Assembly: GCA_963766715.1 (NCBI GenBank) | Contig: CAVYBH010000013.1 | Coordinates: 224,001-288,000 of the forward strand | DNA: 64,000 nucleotides | Direction of reading: 5' to 3' | Origin: an uncultured delta proteobacterium | Lineage (GTDB): Bacteria > Myxococcota > Myxococcia > Myxococcales > Anaeromyxobacteraceae | Part shown: positions 5,345 to 46,248 of the stretch, piece after piece | How the letters are laid out: each line of letters opens with the position of its first letter | How positions within the stretch are numbered: position 1 is the first letter of the stretch | The notes under the pieces: model-generated | Databases searched by the model: none | Seen by the model: only the letters and a program-made list of their open reading frames with translations | What the model was told of the DNA's origin: nothing | Program-made: the position numbers and the translations under genes

Positions 5345-6229
5345 TCAGTCGCGTGCGCCGAAGGTGTCGCAGGCGTCGATGCGCCCGGTCTCCAGGCCCC
5401 GCCGGAACCACTCGCTCCGCTGCGCCGACGTCCCGTGGGTGAAGCTCTCCGGGGAGACGCGCCCCGTCGCCGCCTTCTGCAGCCGGTCGTCGCCCACCGC
5501 CGCCGCGGCGCGGAGTCCCGCCTCGAGGTCGCCCGGGTCGAGCAGCTGGCGCCCCTGCGCCGAGCGGGCCCACACCCCGGCCAGGCAGTCGGCCTGGAGC
5601 TCCATCTTCACCGAGAGCGAATTGCGGATCCCGGGGTTGCGGCGCTGCGCCTCGCGGACCTTGGGCTCGATGCCCAGCACGTTCTGCAGGTGGTGGCCGA
5701 CCTCGTGGGCGATGACGTAGGCCTGCGCGAACTCGCCGGGCGCGCCGAACCGGGTGGCCAGCTCCCGGTAGAAGCCGAGGTCGATGTAGACCTTCTCGTC
5801 CGCAGGGCAATAGAACGGCCCCATCTCCGCGCCGGCCTGTCCGCAGCCGGAGCGGGTCTGGTCCCAGAACAGCACGAGCTTCGCGTCGCGATAGCCGCCG
5901 GCGCTCCGCGCGAGCGCCTTCTCCCAGGTCCGCTGCGCGTCGTTGAAGGCCGAGACCGCGGTGGCCTCCAGCTTCTGCTCGGCGGCGGCCCGCCGCTCGG
6001 CCTGCTGGGGAGACGGGCCCTGTCCTCCGGCCGCCACGGGCGCGCCGGCCGGCGCCGCGCCCAGGTCCGCGAAGAGATCGCGCCCGAACAGGACGGAGAG
6101 GGCCAGCACCACGACGGTTCCGCCCAGCCCGAGCCGGACGCCGCGCCCGCCCATCGGAACCCCGAAGCCCGACGCCTGGCCGCGCCGGTCCTCCACGTTG
6201 CTGCGATCGCCGTCGTCCCCGAGCCTCAT
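5345..6229 (-). CDS. Neutral zinc metallopeptidase (YpfJ family)
   Basis: SNVEDRRG, GPFYCPAD.KVYIDL, AYVIAHEVGHH.Q, ELQADC.AG, SFTHGTS.QR. Confidence 0.93.
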   Translation of the reverse strand: MRLGDDGDRSNVEDRRGQASGFGVPMGGRGVRLGLGGTVVVLALSVLFGRDLFADLGAAPAGAPVAAGGQGPSPQQAERRAAAEQKLEATAVSAFNDAQRTWEKALARSAGGYRDAKLVLFWDQTRSGCGQAGAEMGPFYCPADEKVYIDLGFYRELATRFGAPGEFAQAYVIAHEVGHHLQNVLGIEPKVREAQRRNPGIRNSLSVKMELQADCLAGVWARSAQGRQLLDPGDLEAGLRAAAAVGDDRLQKAATGRVSPESFTHGTSAQRSEWFRRGLETGRIDACDTFGARD

Positions 6230-36876: not shown

Positions 36877-39043
<2,167 letters not shown>

Positions 39044-39870: not shown

Positions 39871-40122
39871 ATGCGACTCGGTTTCGGCGAGATTCTCATC
39901 ATCCTCGTCGTCGTCCTGCTGATCTTCGGGGCGAACAAGATTCCCCAGCTCGGCGACGCGCTGGGCAAGGGCATCAAGAACTTCCGGAAGGCCACCGGGG
40001 GCGAGGACGACTCCATCGACGTCACGCCGCCCAAGGCCGACGCCGAGAAGCTCTCGTCCCCGGAGCGCCCCGCTGCGCCACAGTCGCAGCAGGCGGCCCC
40101 CTCCGAGTCGAAGAAGGTCTAG
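39871..40122 (+). CDS. tatA: Twin-arginine translocase subunit TatA/E
   Basis: [43 protein letters not shown]7-ATG. Confidence 0.95.
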
Positions 40123-40892
40123 GTCGACCGCCGTCCCCGGCGTCCGCCCCGCTCCTCCGCCAGCTTCCTGGCCGCCTCCCGCACCGCGGGGTGCAGCGTG
40201 CCGTCGTCCGCCATCTCCTCCACCTCCCGCGCCGGCAGGGTGGGCAGGATGTGAAGCGCGATCTCGGTCTCGACGAAGGGATTCCTGGCCAGCGCGCGGC
40301 GCACCGCCGACCGGCTTCGCCAGCGCCGGTCCTCGTGGAGCGCCCGGAGGGTCTCCGGCCGGGCCGGCCGGCGCGCGGCGATCCGGACCGCCTCCGCCTC
40401 GGTGACGAGCGGGTTGCGGAGCAGTTCCCGGACCACCGACGGGTCCCCTTCCGCCGCCAGGCGCGCCAGGAGATCGGGGTCGCGCCGCAGCCGGGCGAAG
40501 GCCTTCTTGTGTCCGAGCGAGAGGCGGGCGGCCACGGGGTCCGCCTTGTCGCGCGGCTCCTCGAACGACCGGCGGGGGCGCGGCGAGAGGAACAGCGCGG
40601 CGACGTGCGGCAGGTCGCGTCCGCGCGCCTCGGCGTAGACCGCCGTCCGCCACTCGTAGTCGATGACCGAATCCGGGGCGAGGAGCGCCTGCCCCACCGC
40701 TGCGATGGCGGCCGTTCCCCAGTCCTCGGTGCCGCCCGCCACGAGCGCCGCGAGCAGCTCCACGGCCGGCCCGGGTTCGAGGCGAGCCAGGTGGCGCCCC
40801 GCCGCCCCCGCGCGGATGGCGCCCTCCTCCAGCGCGGCCAGTCGCAAGGCGAACGCCTCGGCCGCCGCCCGCGCTTTGCCGCCCGCGGCCAC
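40119..40892 (-). CDS. Hypothetical alpha-helical (LRV/HEAT-like) protein
   Basis: [28 protein letters not shown] repeats. Confidence 0.65.
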
Positions 40893-40894
40893 GG

Positions 40895-42293
40895 TCAGCG
40901 GCCCGGCGCGGGAACCGGCTCGACGCGGAAGCGGATGGCGCCGACGTCGCCGTCGGGACGGGGGAGGACCACGAGGAAGGGCTCGATCCTGCCCGGGCTC
41001 GAGCCGCGGGGCCGCGCGCGAGCGGATCTCTCCCCGCAGGCGCTCCAGCTCCTCCGCGGTGGAGATGCTCGCCAGCTCCTCCGGACGGGGCACCGCGCCG
41101 GCGAGGCCCGTCGCCTCTCCCAGGCGGGTACCCGCCGCGCACGAGCTCGACGCGGACCGCCACCGGCCCCTCGACGGGAGCGCGGGTCGCTCGCACCACC
41201 CCGCGCACGAAGAGGACCCGGTGCCCGCGAGAGCCCTCGTACAGGCCGCTCGAGACCTGGCCGGTCTCGACGTCGGCCGGGCGGGCGGCTCCGGGCCAGC
41301 GAAGCCCGGCGCCGACTCCCTCTCCCCGCCACCACACCAGGATCCCGGCGGTCAGGACGAGGAGCACGGCGAGCGAGAGCACGTTCATCGCGAGCACCCG
41401 GATGCGCGGGGCGCGAGGCGGCGGATGGGCGGGTGCGGCTGCCTCTGCTGCCGCCGGTGCCGCGGCCGCAGGCGCCGGCACCCGGTCCGGCGCCTGCGGC
41501 TCGGGGAGGGAAGCACCGGCGCGCTGTGCCACCACGGGCGGGGGCTCGGGCGGAGGCGCAGGCCGCCGCGACGTCGAGGGGGGCGTGGGCTCGGGCTCGA
41601 TGGGATCGAAATCGGGGTCCGGGGGCGCGGCGCCCGCCGCCAGGTCGACCTCCTGGAAGCCGTCCATCCCCACCGCCACGGCGTTCGTGGGCTCGGGCTC
41701 GTCCCAGCGCGGGGCGCCGTCCCGGATCGGCATCGCCGCCGGCGTCCGCTCCTCGAGCGAGAGTCCGCCCATCGAGAAGTCGGGCTCCGGCGGCTCCCGC
41801 CCGGCGAGCGGGATCGCGCCCGTGCGCTCCAGGTCGGAGAGGCTCGTCACCGGGAGCGAACCGAGGAATCCGGATCGCTCCACGGGAGGGTCGAGGAGCG
41901 CGGGGCCGAACGGCGTGGGCTCGGGAGGCGCGAGGTCCGACGGGCCGGCGAAGGCGGCGAACGGGTCGCCTTCCAGCGAGGTCGCGGTGGGCGTCCCTGG
42001 GTCCGCGGGGCCGGGGCCACCCTGGAGATCCAGGACGCCGGTGGGCCATCCTCCCGTCCCCGTGGCCTCGGAGGTGGTGTGGAGCGGCGTCGGCTCGGGG
42101 TCGAAAGACCCGATTCGGGGGTTCAGGTGGGGGGGCGGAGGAGGTGGGGGGGAGGTGGCGGCGGGGGAGGCGGCGCCAGGCTGACCGCGAAGGTCTGGCC
42201 GCACCTCGAGCAACGGACCCGCGCGCCGCGCGGACCGACCTTCTCATCGGCGACCCGGAACCGGGCGCTGCACGCGGAGCAAGCGACGATCAT
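40895..42293 (-). CDS. Zinc-ribbon (MJ0042 finger) protein with a Pro-rich linker, TM helix and DUF3426-like domain (frameshifted)
   Basis: MIVACSACSARFRV.D.K....G..VRCSRC...F; TM helix; C-terminal L.PGQ..PF.VV. Confidence 0.75.
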
Positions 42294-42338
42294 GCCGTGA
42301 TTCCAGCGATCCTGGCTGAACCTTAGCACCCGCCCCCC

Positions 42339-42381
42339 TTGACACCAAGGTTCGCGCCGAGAACAATGCCGCACTGCGGCA
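42339..42381 (+). promoter_or_regulatory. phaR promoter with a palindromic PhaR-box-like operator
   Basis: TTGACA-N17-AACAAT overlapping TGCCGCA-C-TGCGGCA (42367-42381). Confidence 0.65.
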
Positions 42382-42412
42382 GGACTTCCCACGCGAGGGG
42401 CCCGGACTCCAG

Positions 42413-42973
42413 ATGACCGACCAGCAGACGGCGAGCGCGGACGCGACCTCGATGGGGCGTGAACCGAAGGTGATCAAGCGGTACGCGAACCGGAAACTCT
42501 ACGACACCGTCGAGTCACGTTACGTCACATTGGAAGAGATCGCCGAGATGGTGAAGGCCGGCGCCGAGGTGCGGATCATCGACAACCGCACCAAGGAGGA
42601 TCTCACCAGCGTGACCCTGGCCCAGATCATCTTCGAGGAGGAGAAGAAGACCTCCAAGATGAGCCTCCGCACGCTCAAGGACCTCATCCGCCACGGCGGA
42701 GAGCGGGCCCAGCAGTTCGTCGAGGAGGCCCAGGCCGACCTGCGGGAGAAGGTGCAGGTGCTCATCCCGAAGGTCCAGGCCACCGGGGATCGCGCCAAGG
42801 ATCTCGTGGCTGCCTCCCAGGAGGCCGTGGCCCAGTTCCAGCGTCGCGTCGACGATCGGGTCCGCGCCACCGTGGACGGGATGGCCAACCTGCCCGAGCT
42901 CCGCAAGGATCTGCAGACGCTCACCGCCCGCCTCGAGGACCTCGAGCGGCGGCTGTCCGACCTCGACCGCTAG
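42413..42973 (+). CDS. phaR: PHA synthesis regulator PhaR-like DNA-binding protein with a phasin-like C-terminal coiled coil
   Basis: IKRYANRKLYDT..SRYVTL..I, D..T.EDLT...LAQII.EEE. Confidence 0.85.
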   Translation: MTDQQTASADATSMGREPKVIKRYANRKLYDTVESRYVTLEEIAEMVKAGAEVRIIDNRTKEDLTSVTLAQIIFEEEKKTSKMSLRTLKDLIRHGGERAQQFVEEAQADLREKVQVLIPKVQATGDRAKDLVAASQEAVAQFQRRVDDRVRATVDGMANLPELRKDLQTLTARLEDLERRLSDLDR

Positions 42974-43752
42974 GTCGGCCCCTGCCCGGCTCCGGCCGGT
43001 CCCAGATCAGTCGTGCGATCTCCGCGAGCGCGATGGCGCCGCTCGAGCGCGGCGCGTACTCGAAGATGGTCTGGCCGTGGCTCTGCGCCTCGTCGATCTT
43101 CACCGAGAACCCCAGCGGCGGCGGCCAGGCGATCGGGGAAGCGCTCGCGCAGCTTGGCCAGGATCTCCTCGGCGAGCTGCGTCTTCCGGTACAGGGTGGG
43201 CACGACCAGCGTGACCGCCGGGGCCCGTCCGGTCTCGGCCCGGAGCGCGTCGAGGCTGGCCAGGATCTCGGCGCACCCGTCGAGCGCCAGGTAGGTGAGC
43301 CCCACCGGCAGCACGACCTCCGTGGCGGCCCGGAGCACGTTCTCGGTGACGAGCGAGACCGACGGGGGCGCGTCGATGAGCACCGCGTCCCAGGAGCCCT
43401 CCGGCACGTCGTCGAGCCGGAGCCGGAGCCGGTCGGCCCGATCGGGGGAGCTCGCCACCTCCACCGGGAAGCCGGCCAGGTCCTTGTTGGCGGGGAGCAG
43501 GTCGAGGCCGGGCAGCGCGGTGGGGAGCGCCGCCTGCTTCACCGAAAGTGACTGCCCGACGAGCACGTCCCGGATGGTGGGAGAGAGGCCGCGGACGTCG
43601 ATGCCCAGCGCCTTCCCGGCGTGCCCCTGGGTGTCCAGGTCGGCGAGCAGGACCCGCTTGCCCCGCTGGCCGGCGATCCACGCGGCCGTGTTCACGCAGA
43701 GCGTGGTCTTGCAGGTGCCGCCCTTCTCGTTGACGAAGGCGATGCGCCGCAT
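42970..43752 (-). CDS. Orphan ParA family ATPase (frameshift near 43115)
   Basis: NEKGGTCKTT, DLD.QG, LIDAPPS, EAQSHG.TIFEYAP.S.GA; no parB nearby. Confidence 0.9.
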   Translation of the reverse strand: MRRIAFVNEKGGTCKTTLCVNTAAWIAGQRGKRVLLADLDTQGHAGKALGIDVRGLSPTIRDVLVGQSLSVKQAALPTALPGLDLLPANKDLAGFPVEVASSPDRADRLRLRLDDVPEGSWDAVLIDAPPSVSLVTENVLRAATEVVLPVGLTYLALDGCAEILASLDALRAETGRAPAVTLVVPTLYRKTQLAEEILAKLRERFPDRLAAAAGVLGEDRRGAEPRPDHLRVRAALERRHRARGDRTTDLGPAGAGQGPT

Positions 43753-43773
43753 GGGACGGGGCTCCGCGCCGCC

Positions 43774-44151
43774 TCAGCTCCGGGCGGGACCGTCCTTGGC
43801 GGGTTCCTCGTCCTGCGGCTCCGCGTCGTCGTCCGACGCCTCGCCCTCCCCCGGGTCGTCGTCCTCCCGGGCCTCGGCCCGGGCGAGCCGCGTGGAGAGC
43901 CCGTCGAGGAGCTCCTCCATCTCGACCAGGCGCCGCTTCAGCTCCTCGAGGTCCCGCGAGGAGGGGACCTGGGCGGCCTCGAGCGCCGCGCGCGCCAGCC
44001 GATCGATCCGCTCCCGGGCCTCGCCGGCCGCGGCCAGGACGGTCTGGAGGGCCAAGCCGGCCTTCTCGGGAGAGAGGACACGCCCCACCTGGCGCTCGCC
44101 GGCGGCACGCGCCTGGCGCAAGAGAGGATGATCGAGGAACGAACGGAGCAT
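43774..44151 (-). CDS. Small coiled-coil phasin (PhaI/PhaF)-like protein with an acidic tail
   Basis: AGGAGGGG RBS; ..ALEAAQVPSSRDLEELKRRL..; D/E-rich C-terminus. Confidence 0.55.
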   Translation of the reverse strand: MLRSFLDHPLLRQARAAGERQVGRVLSPEKAGLALQTVLAAAGEARERIDRLARAALEAAQVPSSRDLEELKRRLVEMEELLDGLSTRLARAEAREDDDPGEGEASDDDAEPQDEEPAKDGPARS

Positions 44152-44191
44152 GTGGACTTCTCCCCTCCTTGTCGTTAGCTTGTCAAGCGCC

Positions 44192-45127
44192 GTGTCCGGC
44201 TCCGATTTGCTCGATCGCCGCCTCGTCGTCGTCACGGGCAAGGGAGGCGTCGGGAAGTCCACGGTCGCCGCCGCCCTCGCCACGCTGGCCGCACGCCGCG
44301 GGAAGAGGGTTCTCGTCGCCGAGGTCGACGCGCGCGAGCGCGTGGCGCCCATGCTGGGCGGCCGCCCCTCCGGCCCCGTCGTCCATCCGGTGGTCGACGG
44401 CATCTCCACCGTCAACGTCGACCCGCGCCACGCGCTCGAGGAGTACGCGCTCATGGTGGTGAAGGTGCGGGCCATCTACCAGGCCGTCTTCGAGAACCGG
44501 ATCGTGCGCTTCTTCCTGCGCGCGGTGCCGTCGCTGGCCGAGACCCTCATGCTGGGGAAGATCCTGCACGAGGCCCGGAGCGAGAAGGACGGCAAGCCGC
44601 GCTGGGACCTGGTGGTCGTCGACGCGCCGGCCACCGGTCACGCGATCCAGCTGCTCGGGGTCCCGAAGGCGCTCCTCGACACCGTGCCGGCGGGCCCGAT
44701 GCGGCGGGACGCGGAGTGGATGCAGGCGCTCCTCACCGATCCCGCCAGGACCTCGGTGGTGCTCGTGTCGCTCCCCGAGGAGATGCCGGTGAGCGAGACC
44801 ATCGAGCTCGACCTGCAGATCCGCGACGGGCTGGGCCTTCCCCGCGGGCCGATCTTCGTGAACGCCATGCCGGACGCCCGCTTCACCGCCGCGGAGCAGG
44901 AACGGCTGCGAGGCCTCGCCGGGTCCGAGCCCCCGGTGGGTCCGGCGGCGCGGGCCTCGCTCCTCGAGGCCGGCCGGCGGGAGCGGGCCGAAGGACAGGT
45001 GGCCCGGCTTCGCGGGGCCGTCGAGGGCTCGCTCGTCACCCTCCCCTTGCTCGCCACCGAGCGCTGGGGGCGCCGCGCCGTGGAGAAGATCGCCGACGCC
45101 ATCGATGCCGCCGAAGGGCGCGCCTGA
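44192..45127 (+). CDS. ArsA/Get3-family ATPase, first of a tandem pair (Rv3679/BagA-like)
   Basis: VTGKGGVGKST, VDAPATGH, LPEEMPV.ET.EL. Confidence 0.9.
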   Translation: MSGSDLLDRRLVVVTGKGGVGKSTVAAALATLAARRGKRVLVAEVDARERVAPMLGGRPSGPVVHPVVDGISTVNVDPRHALEEYALMVVKVRAIYQAVFENRIVRFFLRAVPSLAETLMLGKILHEARSEKDGKPRWDLVVVDAPATGHAIQLLGVPKALLDTVPAGPMRRDAEWMQALLTDPARTSVVLVSLPEEMPVSETIELDLQIRDGLGLPRGPIFVNAMPDARFTAAEQERLRGLAGSEPPVGPAARASLLEAGRRERAEGQVARLRGAVEGSLVTLPLLATERWGRRAVEKIADAIDAAEGRA

Positions 45128-46248
45128 TGGGCGCGCTCCTCCGGTCGCTCCAGGACAGGAAGATCGCGGTGGTGGTGGGGAGCGGCGGCGTCGGCAAGAC
45201 GTCGCTCTCGGCCGCCATCGCCCTCTCCCGCGCGCTCGAGGGCGGGCGGGTGCTCGTGTGCACCATCGACCCGGCCCGCCGGCTCGCCACGGCCCTCGGG
45301 CTCGCGTCGCTCGGGAACACCGAGGCCCGCATCCCGGACGAGGCCTTCACGCGCGCCGGGCTCGAGCCCCGGGGCGAGATGTTCGCCATGATGCTCGACG
45401 TGAAGCGCACCTGGGACGACCTGGTGACGCGCCACGCGCCCGACGCCGCCACGCGCGACCGGATCCTCGGCAACCGCATCTACCAGCAAGTCTCCGGCGC
45501 CCTGGCCGGCTCGCAGGAGTACATGGCGATGGAGAAGCTCTACGAGCTCTCCACGGAGCGGGACTACGACCTGATCGTCCTCGACACGCCTCCCACCGTC
45601 CACGCCCTCGACTTCCTGGAGGCGCCCGACCGGATCCTCGACTTCGTGGGGAACGAGACGGCCCGGAAGCTCTTCGCCCCGGCCATCGGCGCCGGCCGCT
45701 TCGGGGCGCGCCTCATCCAGGCGGGCACGAGCTACGTGGCGAAGATCCTCTCCCGCTTCACCGGATCCGACGTGCTCCACGACGTCGGCGACTTCCTCGG
45801 GCAGTTCCAGGGCATGTACGACGGCTTCAAGGACCGGGCCTCCGCGGTCCGGACGCTCCTCACCCGCCCGGAGGTGGGGTTCGTGCTGGTGGCGAGCCCC
45901 AGCCCGCTCTCGGTGGACGAGGCGCTCTTCTTCCACGACCACCTCCGGACCGCCGGGATGCCGGTGGCCGGCGCCGTGGCGAACCGCGTGACGCCCGACC
46001 TCTGGCCCCTTCCCGGGGCGCTCCCCGGGGCGGCGGCGCTCGGCAACGCGCTCGGCGGGGAGGGAGACGCCACGCTGCCGGAGCGGATGGCCCGGACGCT
46101 CGCCGAGCACCAGGCCTTCGCCCACGCCGACGAGCGGGAGCTGGGGCGATTCCGCCGCGGGGCGCCCGGGCCCTTCGCGGCCGTCCCGCAGCTGGAGGGG
46201 GACGTCCACGACCTCTCCGGGCTGGCGGCGCTGGCCCGGCACCTCTGA
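45127..46248 (+). CDS. ArsA/Get3-family ATPase, second of the pair (Rv3680/BagB-like)
   Basis: GSGGVGKTS, TIDPARRLA.ALG, GSQEYMAMEKL, DTPP...ALDFL.AP, DVHDL. Confidence 0.9.
   Translation: MGALLRSLQDRKIAVVVGSGGVGKTSLSAAIALSRALEGGRVLVCTIDPARRLATALGLASLGNTEARIPDEAFTRAGLEPRGEMFAMMLDVKRTWDDLVTRHAPDAATRDRILGNRIYQQVSGALAGSQEYMAMEKLYELSTERDYDLIVLDTPPTVHALDFLEAPDRILDFVGNETARKLFAPAIGAGRFGARLIQAGTSYVAKILSRFTGSDVLHDVGDFLGQFQGMYDGFKDRASAVRTLLTRPEVGFVLVASPSPLSVDEALFFHDHLRTAGMPVAGAVANRVTPDLWPLPGALPGAAALGNALGGEGDATLPERMARTLAEHQAFAHADERELGRFRRGAPGPFAAVPQLEGDVHDLSGLAALARHL

Follow-up and report, generated by a model that had tools for sequence, protein, structure and literature searches.

The DNA examined here is a 64,000-nucleotide window of contig CAVYBH010000013.1, from an uncultured delta proteobacterium of the Anaeromyxobacteraceae. 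At positions 42339 to 46248, it carries a locus of five genes encoding a PhaR-like regulator, an orphan ParA ATPase, a small phasin-family homologue, and two Get3/ArsA-fold ATPases resembling BagA and BagB. The five genes correspond to MXAN_5814 to MXAN_5818 of Myxococcus xanthus. Comparative sequence evidence supports a predicted regulatory tie between the PhaR-like protein and genes for phasins and fatty acid catabolism, which goes beyond what a first-pass annotation of the window had seen. We favor the view that this is an accessory locus of a lipid inclusion other than polyhydroxyalkanoate (PHA), contributing a regulator, a coat, and a ParA spacer, although we put its chances slightly below even. 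The annotation had proposed that the locus loads amphipathic proteins onto PHA or lipid bodies and segregates them over the nucleoid; that interpretation is partly supported, and the cargo is likely fat (neutral lipid) rather than PHA.

Regulator and predicted operator

The regulator gene (42413 to 42973, plus strand; MXAN_5814) encodes a PHB_acc_N DNA-binding domain (PF07879, 95.8 bits) and a C-terminal phasin-type module. Against TIGR01848 (PHA synthesis repressor), the protein scored 87.7 bits, below the equivalog cutoff of 109.45. A sigma70-type promoter is predicted for the gene (42339 to 42367, plus strand; TTGACA, 17 bp, AACAAT), with the same spacing in relatives. Its −10 box is overlapped by a perfect palindrome, TGCCGCA-C-TGCGGCA (42367 to 42381), the putative site at which the PhaR-like protein would regulate its own gene. 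The consensus from orthologue upstream regions, TGACGCA-N-TGCGTCA, contains the known PhaR core; the core reported for Sinorhizobium meliloti PhaR, YGCRNYGCR, is identical to that of the palindrome here (PMC12542648). Upstream regions of orthologues matched the consensus at 13 or more of 15 letters in 26 of 86 cases, against a shuffle mean of 1.6, a figure that is partly circular because the consensus was written after the regions had been viewed. From the apparent autoregulation and the shared PhaR core, we infer that the regulator binds these palindromes.

To define a wider set of predicted targets, an operator matrix built solely from phaR upstream regions was applied to the source genome and, with a threshold of at least 12 bits, to its relatives. 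The source genome held 34 sites of at least 15 bits, 26 of them outside called genes, compared with 76 of 244 for eight permuted matrices (genes being called with a crude caller). The strongest sites lay upstream of a distant tandem phasin pair, an ACAD9-like fadE, and fadIJ. Strong sites were also present upstream of genes for acetyl-CoA synthetase, an aldehyde dehydrogenase, lepA, purM, and ABC transporters, and weaker ones preceded a malic enzyme gene and an acyl-CoA carboxyltransferase gene. Six strong operator-like sites (G000:C12:691434, C6:43401, C17:59326, C17:163158, C9:82413, and C8:848590, where G000 is the source assembly) stand before lepA, branched-chain ABC transporter or formate dehydrogenase genes, purM, acs, and the aldehyde dehydrogenase gene. 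Because of strong sites such as those at lepA, purM, and acs, the regulon may exceed lipid metabolism.

The sites at the phasin and beta-oxidation genes recurred in relatives. All but one of 26 genomes had an operator upstream of the phasin pair (coding control, 1/20; background at random genes, 1.8% of 597), and in the exception an exact operator match lay 65 bp above the aligned part. It preceded fadI, of the fadIJ pair, in 21 of the 30 cases examined out of 38 matches (coding control, 0/30), and fadE in 11 of 25 (coding control, 0/25). A pattern refined with the phasin sites and matched exactly occurred 43 times in 55 genomes, versus 8 times for its reverse. At the locus itself, a weaker operator covers the −35 box of the small-gene promoter in 30 of 116 distinct regions, 29 of them from Myxococcaceae. 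These Myxococcaceae sites, at the promoter of the small gene and parA, score 11.7 to 14.2 bits, a level reached by 1 of 104 TTGACA sites in the source genome. As a prediction from sequence, the regulatory part of the model is well supported by comparison.

The tandem phasin pair of the source genome (G000:C17:120398-121262, locus L204) has a 17.3-bit operator 60 bp upstream. It likely corresponds to MXAN_3079/3080, an assignment made by gene order and lengths rather than by alignment; in M. xanthus, a lytic transglycosylase gene comes next. In most sampled genomes of the source genome's family, the pair lies 4 to 8 kb from a plsB-like acyltransferase gene. An operator at that acyltransferase gene was rejected as not conserved (4/30, versus 1 in the control). 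A pattern allowing one mismatch was not enriched in genome G110 (17, versus 15 in the control) and was not above control in five further genomes. In G110, operator-like sites (L282, L291, L295, and L296) occur before genes for a glutamine synthetase or an esterase, a diacylglycerol kinase-like protein, an alpha/beta hydrolase, and an acyl-CoA ligase. The fadI site was missing both in G102, which is without the regulator, and in G097, which has it, so that this comparison is uninformative.

The regulator lineage separated from PHA-linked PhaR paralogues with support of 99/99, in a tree of 7 PHA-linked and 73 other rows over 89 columns whose bootstrap had not settled; the paralogues adjoining pha genes formed their own branch. 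The members of this second lineage (L045, L059, L061, L064, L077, L089, and L092) adjoin class III-like phaC and/or phaB and have a more canonical TGYTGC-type palindrome upstream. At L089 and L092, the small protein also has a short homologue resembling PhaE.

This separation bears on the literal form of the earlier proposal, in which the module loads and segregates PHA granules. Its PhaR-type and phasin-type domains fit that idea, as do PhaC-like genes in 85 of 201 genomes of the phylum (a sample including G181, marked unpublished), among them 16 of 16 from genus g19. However, no PhaC was found in the source genome (84.6% complete), in any of the 20 genomes of its family, f1, of which 4 consist of a single contig, or in any of the 4 genomes of family f3, with a positive Caulobacter control. 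Since no PHA synthase was detected there, PHA is unlikely as the cargo in the source family, and for that family PHA granules as cargo are contradicted. The pha genes have a PhaR paralogue of their own, and the PHA-synthase-like gene MXAN_2706 is listed as up in an mrpC mutant of M. xanthus, opposite to the phasins. We consider the PHA version very unlikely. The annotation had also suggested looking for co-occurrence with phaC or with wax ester synthase/diacylglycerol acyltransferase (WS/DGAT) genes. The source genome encodes WS/DGAT, as do 11 of the 20 genomes of its family (E ≤ 1e-15), with one more at a looser threshold.

Small phasin-family protein, ParA, and the ATPase pair

The small gene (43774 to 44151, minus strand; MXAN_5816) encodes a 125-residue protein with the motif PSSRDLEELKRRL and an acidic tail. 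The window protein itself scored 14.5 bits against the Pfam family Phasin (PF05597, which we take to comprise PhaF/PhaI-type phasins), under the cutoff of 28.8. Among 36 homologues, 35 matched this family at E ≤ 0.05, weakly and at best with 1.5e-7, and 8 weakly matched PhaE. Profile comparison with the genome's own Pfam phasin family, which itself passes the PF05597 cutoff, gave a probability of 96 (E = 3e-9; controls, 4 and 0.4), and the C terminus of the regulator aligned with the small protein at an HH probability of 94.6. One module is shared by the small protein, both phasins, and the PhaR C terminus. A structure model of the small protein has four helices and a disordered tail, and this helical model, with its amphipathic moment, makes the protein a candidate for binding an inclusion surface. 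These profile and model results bear out the kinship with phasins that had been read from the motif, but the acidic tail cannot define the family: tail net charge runs from −10 to +10 over the 36 homologues, being acidic in the source genus and neutral or basic elsewhere. In some homologues (L052:5049-5441, L053:4964-5401, and L099:4456-4812), the terminal tail is basic and rich in Lys, Ala, and Pro, resembling the histone-type tail of PhaF, and because of such tails these proteins might tether directly to DNA.

Two fold searches with the model returned, respectively, nothing at E ≤ 0.001 and generic coiled coils only (best Z, 5.1). An Atlas search with the small protein recovered only Myxococcota clusters, one of them with 12% Phasin, and the taxa of 10 distant homologues carried two names, Myxococcota and Deltaproteobacteria.

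The parA gene (42921 to 43752, minus strand; MXAN_5815) starts at 43752, 21 bp after the small gene, and the two are likely cotranscribed. Its product matches Pfam AAA_31, and its best PDB matches are Soj structures. The deviant Walker A motif EKGG.xKTT, with its signature Lys, and the D..QG motif with the catalytic Asp were present in all 34 orthologues. The variant KGGTCKTT that had been singled out is indeed that of the window ParA, but its Cys occurs in only 25 of the 34 and was dropped as a defining feature. The sole parB found in the source assembly adjoins the chromosomal parA on another contig. The window ParA is therefore an orphan, in agreement with the earlier remark that no parB is nearby; a PomZ-like gene and the chromosomal parA are located elsewhere in the genome. 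The C-terminal tails of the ParA orthologues are short and variable. A complex prediction for a ParA dimer (with ATP and Mg) and the small protein gave no answer (score, 0.00) and was not used as evidence.

Relative to four close relatives, parA has one extra base near 43118, so that its end at 42921 is the stop of the frame that continues past the shift. The base is missing from the contigs of three of four public runs, and similar shifts occur in other genes of the 4.2-Mb source assembly; for these reasons the frameshift is very likely an assembly error. Apparent frameshifts split a thioredoxin-domain gene (window positions 36877 to 39043) and a pyrD-like gene (G000:C17 near 121615), and both WS/DGAT genes are apparently frameshifted (G000:C14:40785-42184 and G000:C12:102854-104194), which points to indel errors throughout the assembly.

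A 40-bp divergent intergenic region (44152 to 44191) separates the small gene from the ATPase pair. From its sequence and an alignment of 116 distinct regions, it holds overlapping predicted promoter boxes, TGGACT-17-TAGCTT toward bagA and TTGACA toward the small gene. The first ATPase gene (44192 to 45127, plus strand, with a GTG start at 44192; MXAN_5817) encodes GKGGVGKST, with the signature Lys. The second (45127 to 46248, plus strand; MXAN_5818, agmR) encodes GSGGVGKTS, without this Lys, and its start overlaps the stop of the first. The best NCBIfam matches of the two products were BagA (NF053622, 138.6 bits; equivalog cutoff, 400) and BagB (NF053621, 314 bits; cutoff, 521), both below cutoff. 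The first had PDB entry 6bs3_A as its best match (E = 1e-26), and the second matched 6bs3_B (E = 9e-68). The proposal of a tandem Get3/BagAB-like pair thus holds. Identity with the arsenical pump ATPase ArsA was rejected: both scored under 60 bits against TIGR04291 (cutoff, 650), both are single-domain chains, and with 0 and 1 Cys, respectively, the arsenite-binding cysteines of ArsA are missing. The annotation had noted the lack of ArsB, and no ArsB-like open reading frame (ORF) stands among the neighboring ORFs of the window, where no dedicated search was made. A second BagB-like gene exists elsewhere in many Myxococcota genomes.

All five ORFs, read from the window sequence and its translations, lie where the annotation had placed them, with the regulator converging on the small gene and parA and the ATPase pair diverging from them. 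Divergent from the regulator on the minus strand (39950 to 42300) are a frameshifted gene for a zinc-ribbon membrane protein and genes for a helical-repeat protein, a TatA-like protein, and a GDPD protein. The conserved helical-repeat protein has no Pfam match, and its gene remains near phaR in many families.

One lipid-body locus or separate functions

In the explanation we favor, the PhaR-like protein would repress phasin and beta-oxidation genes through the palindromic operator, and forming lipid bodies would capture it via its phasin-type C terminus and free the operators. By analogy with PhaR and PhaP, this capture would probably raise the coat proteins together with FadIJ and FadE. The small phasin homologue would add to the coat of the inclusion, and we lean slightly toward placing it on the lipid-body surface. 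ParA would use the small-protein coat as an adaptor to space the inclusions and, where the small gene is missing, the regulator's phasin-type tail could supply the module; that ParA acts on the bodies is suggested by the gene pairing and seems to us rather doubtful. The BagAB heterodimer would shield or deliver amphipathic coat helices, a role to which synteny and coexpression point and which we judge unlikely. The full non-PHA lipid-body program, with PhaR sensing the bodies, Get3-like coat loading, and ParA spacing via a phasin adaptor, is improbable as a whole.

Gene neighborhoods were surveyed in 80 phaR-type loci, hand-picked across families from 150 matches listed in the 201 genomes. The five-gene block proved to be conserved across many myxobacteria, with all five genes together in 28 of the 80 loci; one further locus was cut by the edge of the fetched stretch. 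Eleven loci lacked only parA, 3 lacked only the small gene, 25 held the regulator alone, and 7 were paralogues beside phaC or phaB. Of the best 80 named ParA loci, 66 held all five genes, as counted from a table of close kin. Where both genes exist, the small gene immediately precedes parA; of 25 measured gaps, 24 fall between −1 and 51 bp and one is 176 bp, while 9 further parA loci gave no measurement; the two remain paired when detached from phaR or bagAB (families f6, f7, f8, f19, and f25). An all-against-all clustering of neighbors was dominated by antisense frames and was used only as a lead.

The block also carries envelope genes, so synteny alone is no proof of one machine. The five genes may instead form an old synteny block with separate functions: the regulator and phasins would serve lipid storage, BagAB would serve downstream envelope proteins (the TPR lipoprotein, AgmM, or MltG), and ParA would serve some other cargo. 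We regard this alternative as possible but not probable. It accounts well for genome-wide tallies in which the regulator (181 of 201) and BagB (171) are near universal and the small protein (123) and single-copy ParA (102) are not, for the non-PHA regulators that stand alone, and for the second BagB. Three observations run the other way: parA sits directly behind the phasin homologue even after relocation, the TPR gene does not follow bagB in the source genus, and in a csgA mutant of M. xanthus the five genes shift together, whereas the TPR gene, agmM, and the upstream flanking genes do not shift with them.

The last observation comes from published M. xanthus expression data. The rows of the supplement describe MXAN_5814 as having a PHA regulator domain, 5815 as ParA, 5817 as ArsA, and 5818 as agmR, and the 90% cluster of the small protein includes MXAN_5816. 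In the tables consulted, MXAN_5814 to MXAN_5818 were all down in csgA; four of these were down in mrpC as well, and 5816 and 5818 were down in each of the three mutants (csgA, mrpC, and fruA) (PMC11980068). Of the flanking genes, 5812 and 5813 were up in csgA, and 5819 and 5820 were changed in fruA only; the phasins, fadI, and DGAT were also down (PMC11980068). In csgA cells, lipid-body area is about 20% of that of the wild type. In a developmental time course, MXAN_3079 rose from about 1100 to between 4900 and 6400 reads per kilobase per million (RPKM) at its 24-h peak, about 5- to 6-fold, and MXAN_3079, MXAN_3080, and fadI share developmental group 7 (PMC6791715). MXAN_5816 also peaks at 24 h, in data that had been filtered out, and 5814 drops about twofold (PMC6791715).

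Several observations weigh against a single lipid-body locus. With respect to regulation, the link between operator and regulator is itself inferred from sequence. No operator was found at the small-gene/bagA promoter of the source genome or of any sampled member of its family, nor at the WS/DGAT genes of the source genome, and the Myxococcaceae small-gene site is a single inherited event that overlaps a −35 box, as do many fadI sites. With respect to expression, 1455 genes were down in csgA and 382 in all three mutants (PMC11980068), and at such a base rate coregulation says little; the time courses of 5815 to 5818 failed the quality filters of their study, with 5815 and 5818 nearly flat (PMC6791715). 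With respect to gene content, families f24 and f5 retain the small gene with no ParA found (0/10 and 0/3, respectively), and f11 retains ParA (15/17) with no small gene found (0/17, E ≤ 1e-12). In 40 of 44 loci, bagB has a TPR-lipoprotein gene nearby, and agmR is among the transposon hits for gliding motility, in a report that leaves its role unestablished (PMC3169522); both fit separate functions. Genomes G026, G108, G147, and G172 hold the full locus with neither PhaC nor WS/DGAT. Neutral lipid nevertheless remains compatible with the lack of WS/DGAT, because triacylglycerol (TAG) bodies of M. xanthus, which appear at 6 h and reach their maximum at 18 h, form without its single DGAT (PMC4048283).

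The residues of ParA add a further point against spacing over the nucleoid. We take the DNA-binding roles of the Soj Arg residues, and their Bacillus subtilis numbering, to apply to the window ParA. The R218 equivalent is hydrophobic in 34 of 34 orthologues (W, F, or Y in 28), which makes nucleoid binding doubtful. ParA could then be a regulator rather than a nucleoid-surfing positioner, modulating the convergent PhaR-like protein much as FleN acts on FleQ, or it could act at a membrane or body surface. Families f11 and f9 keep ParA beside phaR without the small gene (in f11, usually between phaR and bagA), and the regulator's C terminus carries the small protein's module, as this alternative would have it. 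On the other hand, the R189 equivalent is conserved in 34 of 34 and the next basic position after the R218 equivalent is basic in 27 of 34, and in f7, f8, f19, and f25 parA and the small gene have moved together to a place apart from phaR. We consider a regulatory ParA quite unlikely.

Relation to known systems

Each part of the locus is of a known kind; what is new is the predicted operator at the promoters of the regulator, the phasin pair, and fadIJ. The PhaR/AniA-phasin circuit of S. meliloti and Ralstonia eutropha has the same PHB_acc_N domain and the same YGCRNYGCR-core palindrome, located both at the promoter of the regulator gene and at phasin genes. The circuit predicted here differs in that no PHA synthase was found in the source family, the regulator has a phasin-type C terminus, falls below the TIGR01848 cutoff, and branches apart from the PHA-linked paralogues, the palindrome is flanked by TGAC..GTCA, and the predicted targets include fadIJ and fadE.

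An orphan ParA behind a small coiled-coil gene, with no parB (parS was not searched for), is also the arrangement of McdAB carboxysome positioning and of PomXYZ; ParC/ParP is another system of an orphan ParA and a partner. Here, in contrast, the candidate partner is homologous to phasins, the ParA lacks one of the DNA-binding Arg residues of Soj, and some families have ParA without the small gene or the reverse. Some small-protein homologues resemble the PhaF tether in their Lys/Ala/Pro-rich basic tails, but across the homologues a basic tail is not conserved, and the tail of the window protein is acidic. As described in the consulted part of a 2025 review, PhaM, PhaF, and PhaH position granules without a ParA, and ParA-type positioning of storage granules is posed there as an open question, with ParA as a possible helper (PMC13052382). 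The BagA/BagB pair (Rv3679/Rv3680; 6BS3) is likewise a coupled pair whose second subunit is without the signature Lys; the pair here scores under the equivalog cutoffs and diverges from the phasin-parA unit. Phenotypes reported for mycobacterial BagAB concern glycerol and nitric oxide toxicity (PMC10597346).

M. xanthus, with its developmental TAG bodies, has the orthologues, and the time course of the phasin pair fits the bodies. We found no paper on the locus or the operator, or linking MXAN_5814 to MXAN_5818 or MXAN_3079/3080 to TAG bodies, in a search outside of which lay most subscription papers, including the 2009 lipid-body proteome, which may list some of the proteins. The locus is not discussed in the sections consulted of a 2025 review (PMC12288465), and the main text of a 2026 BarSeq preprint does not name its genes.

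A 2014 paper described the formation, coating, and regulation of the developmental lipid bodies of M. xanthus as unknown (PMC4048283). The present analysis names a candidate regulator (MXAN_5814), a 15-bp operator, coat candidates (MXAN_3079, 3080, and 5816), and a motor candidate (MXAN_5815) in a tractable model organism. If ParA does space the bodies, the locus would provide the first system to position a carbon-storage inclusion by means of ATP. Even if ParA is unrelated, a PhaR-phasin circuit persists without a detectable PHA synthase and is likely rewired to beta-oxidation, for which we found no precedent in the literature searched.

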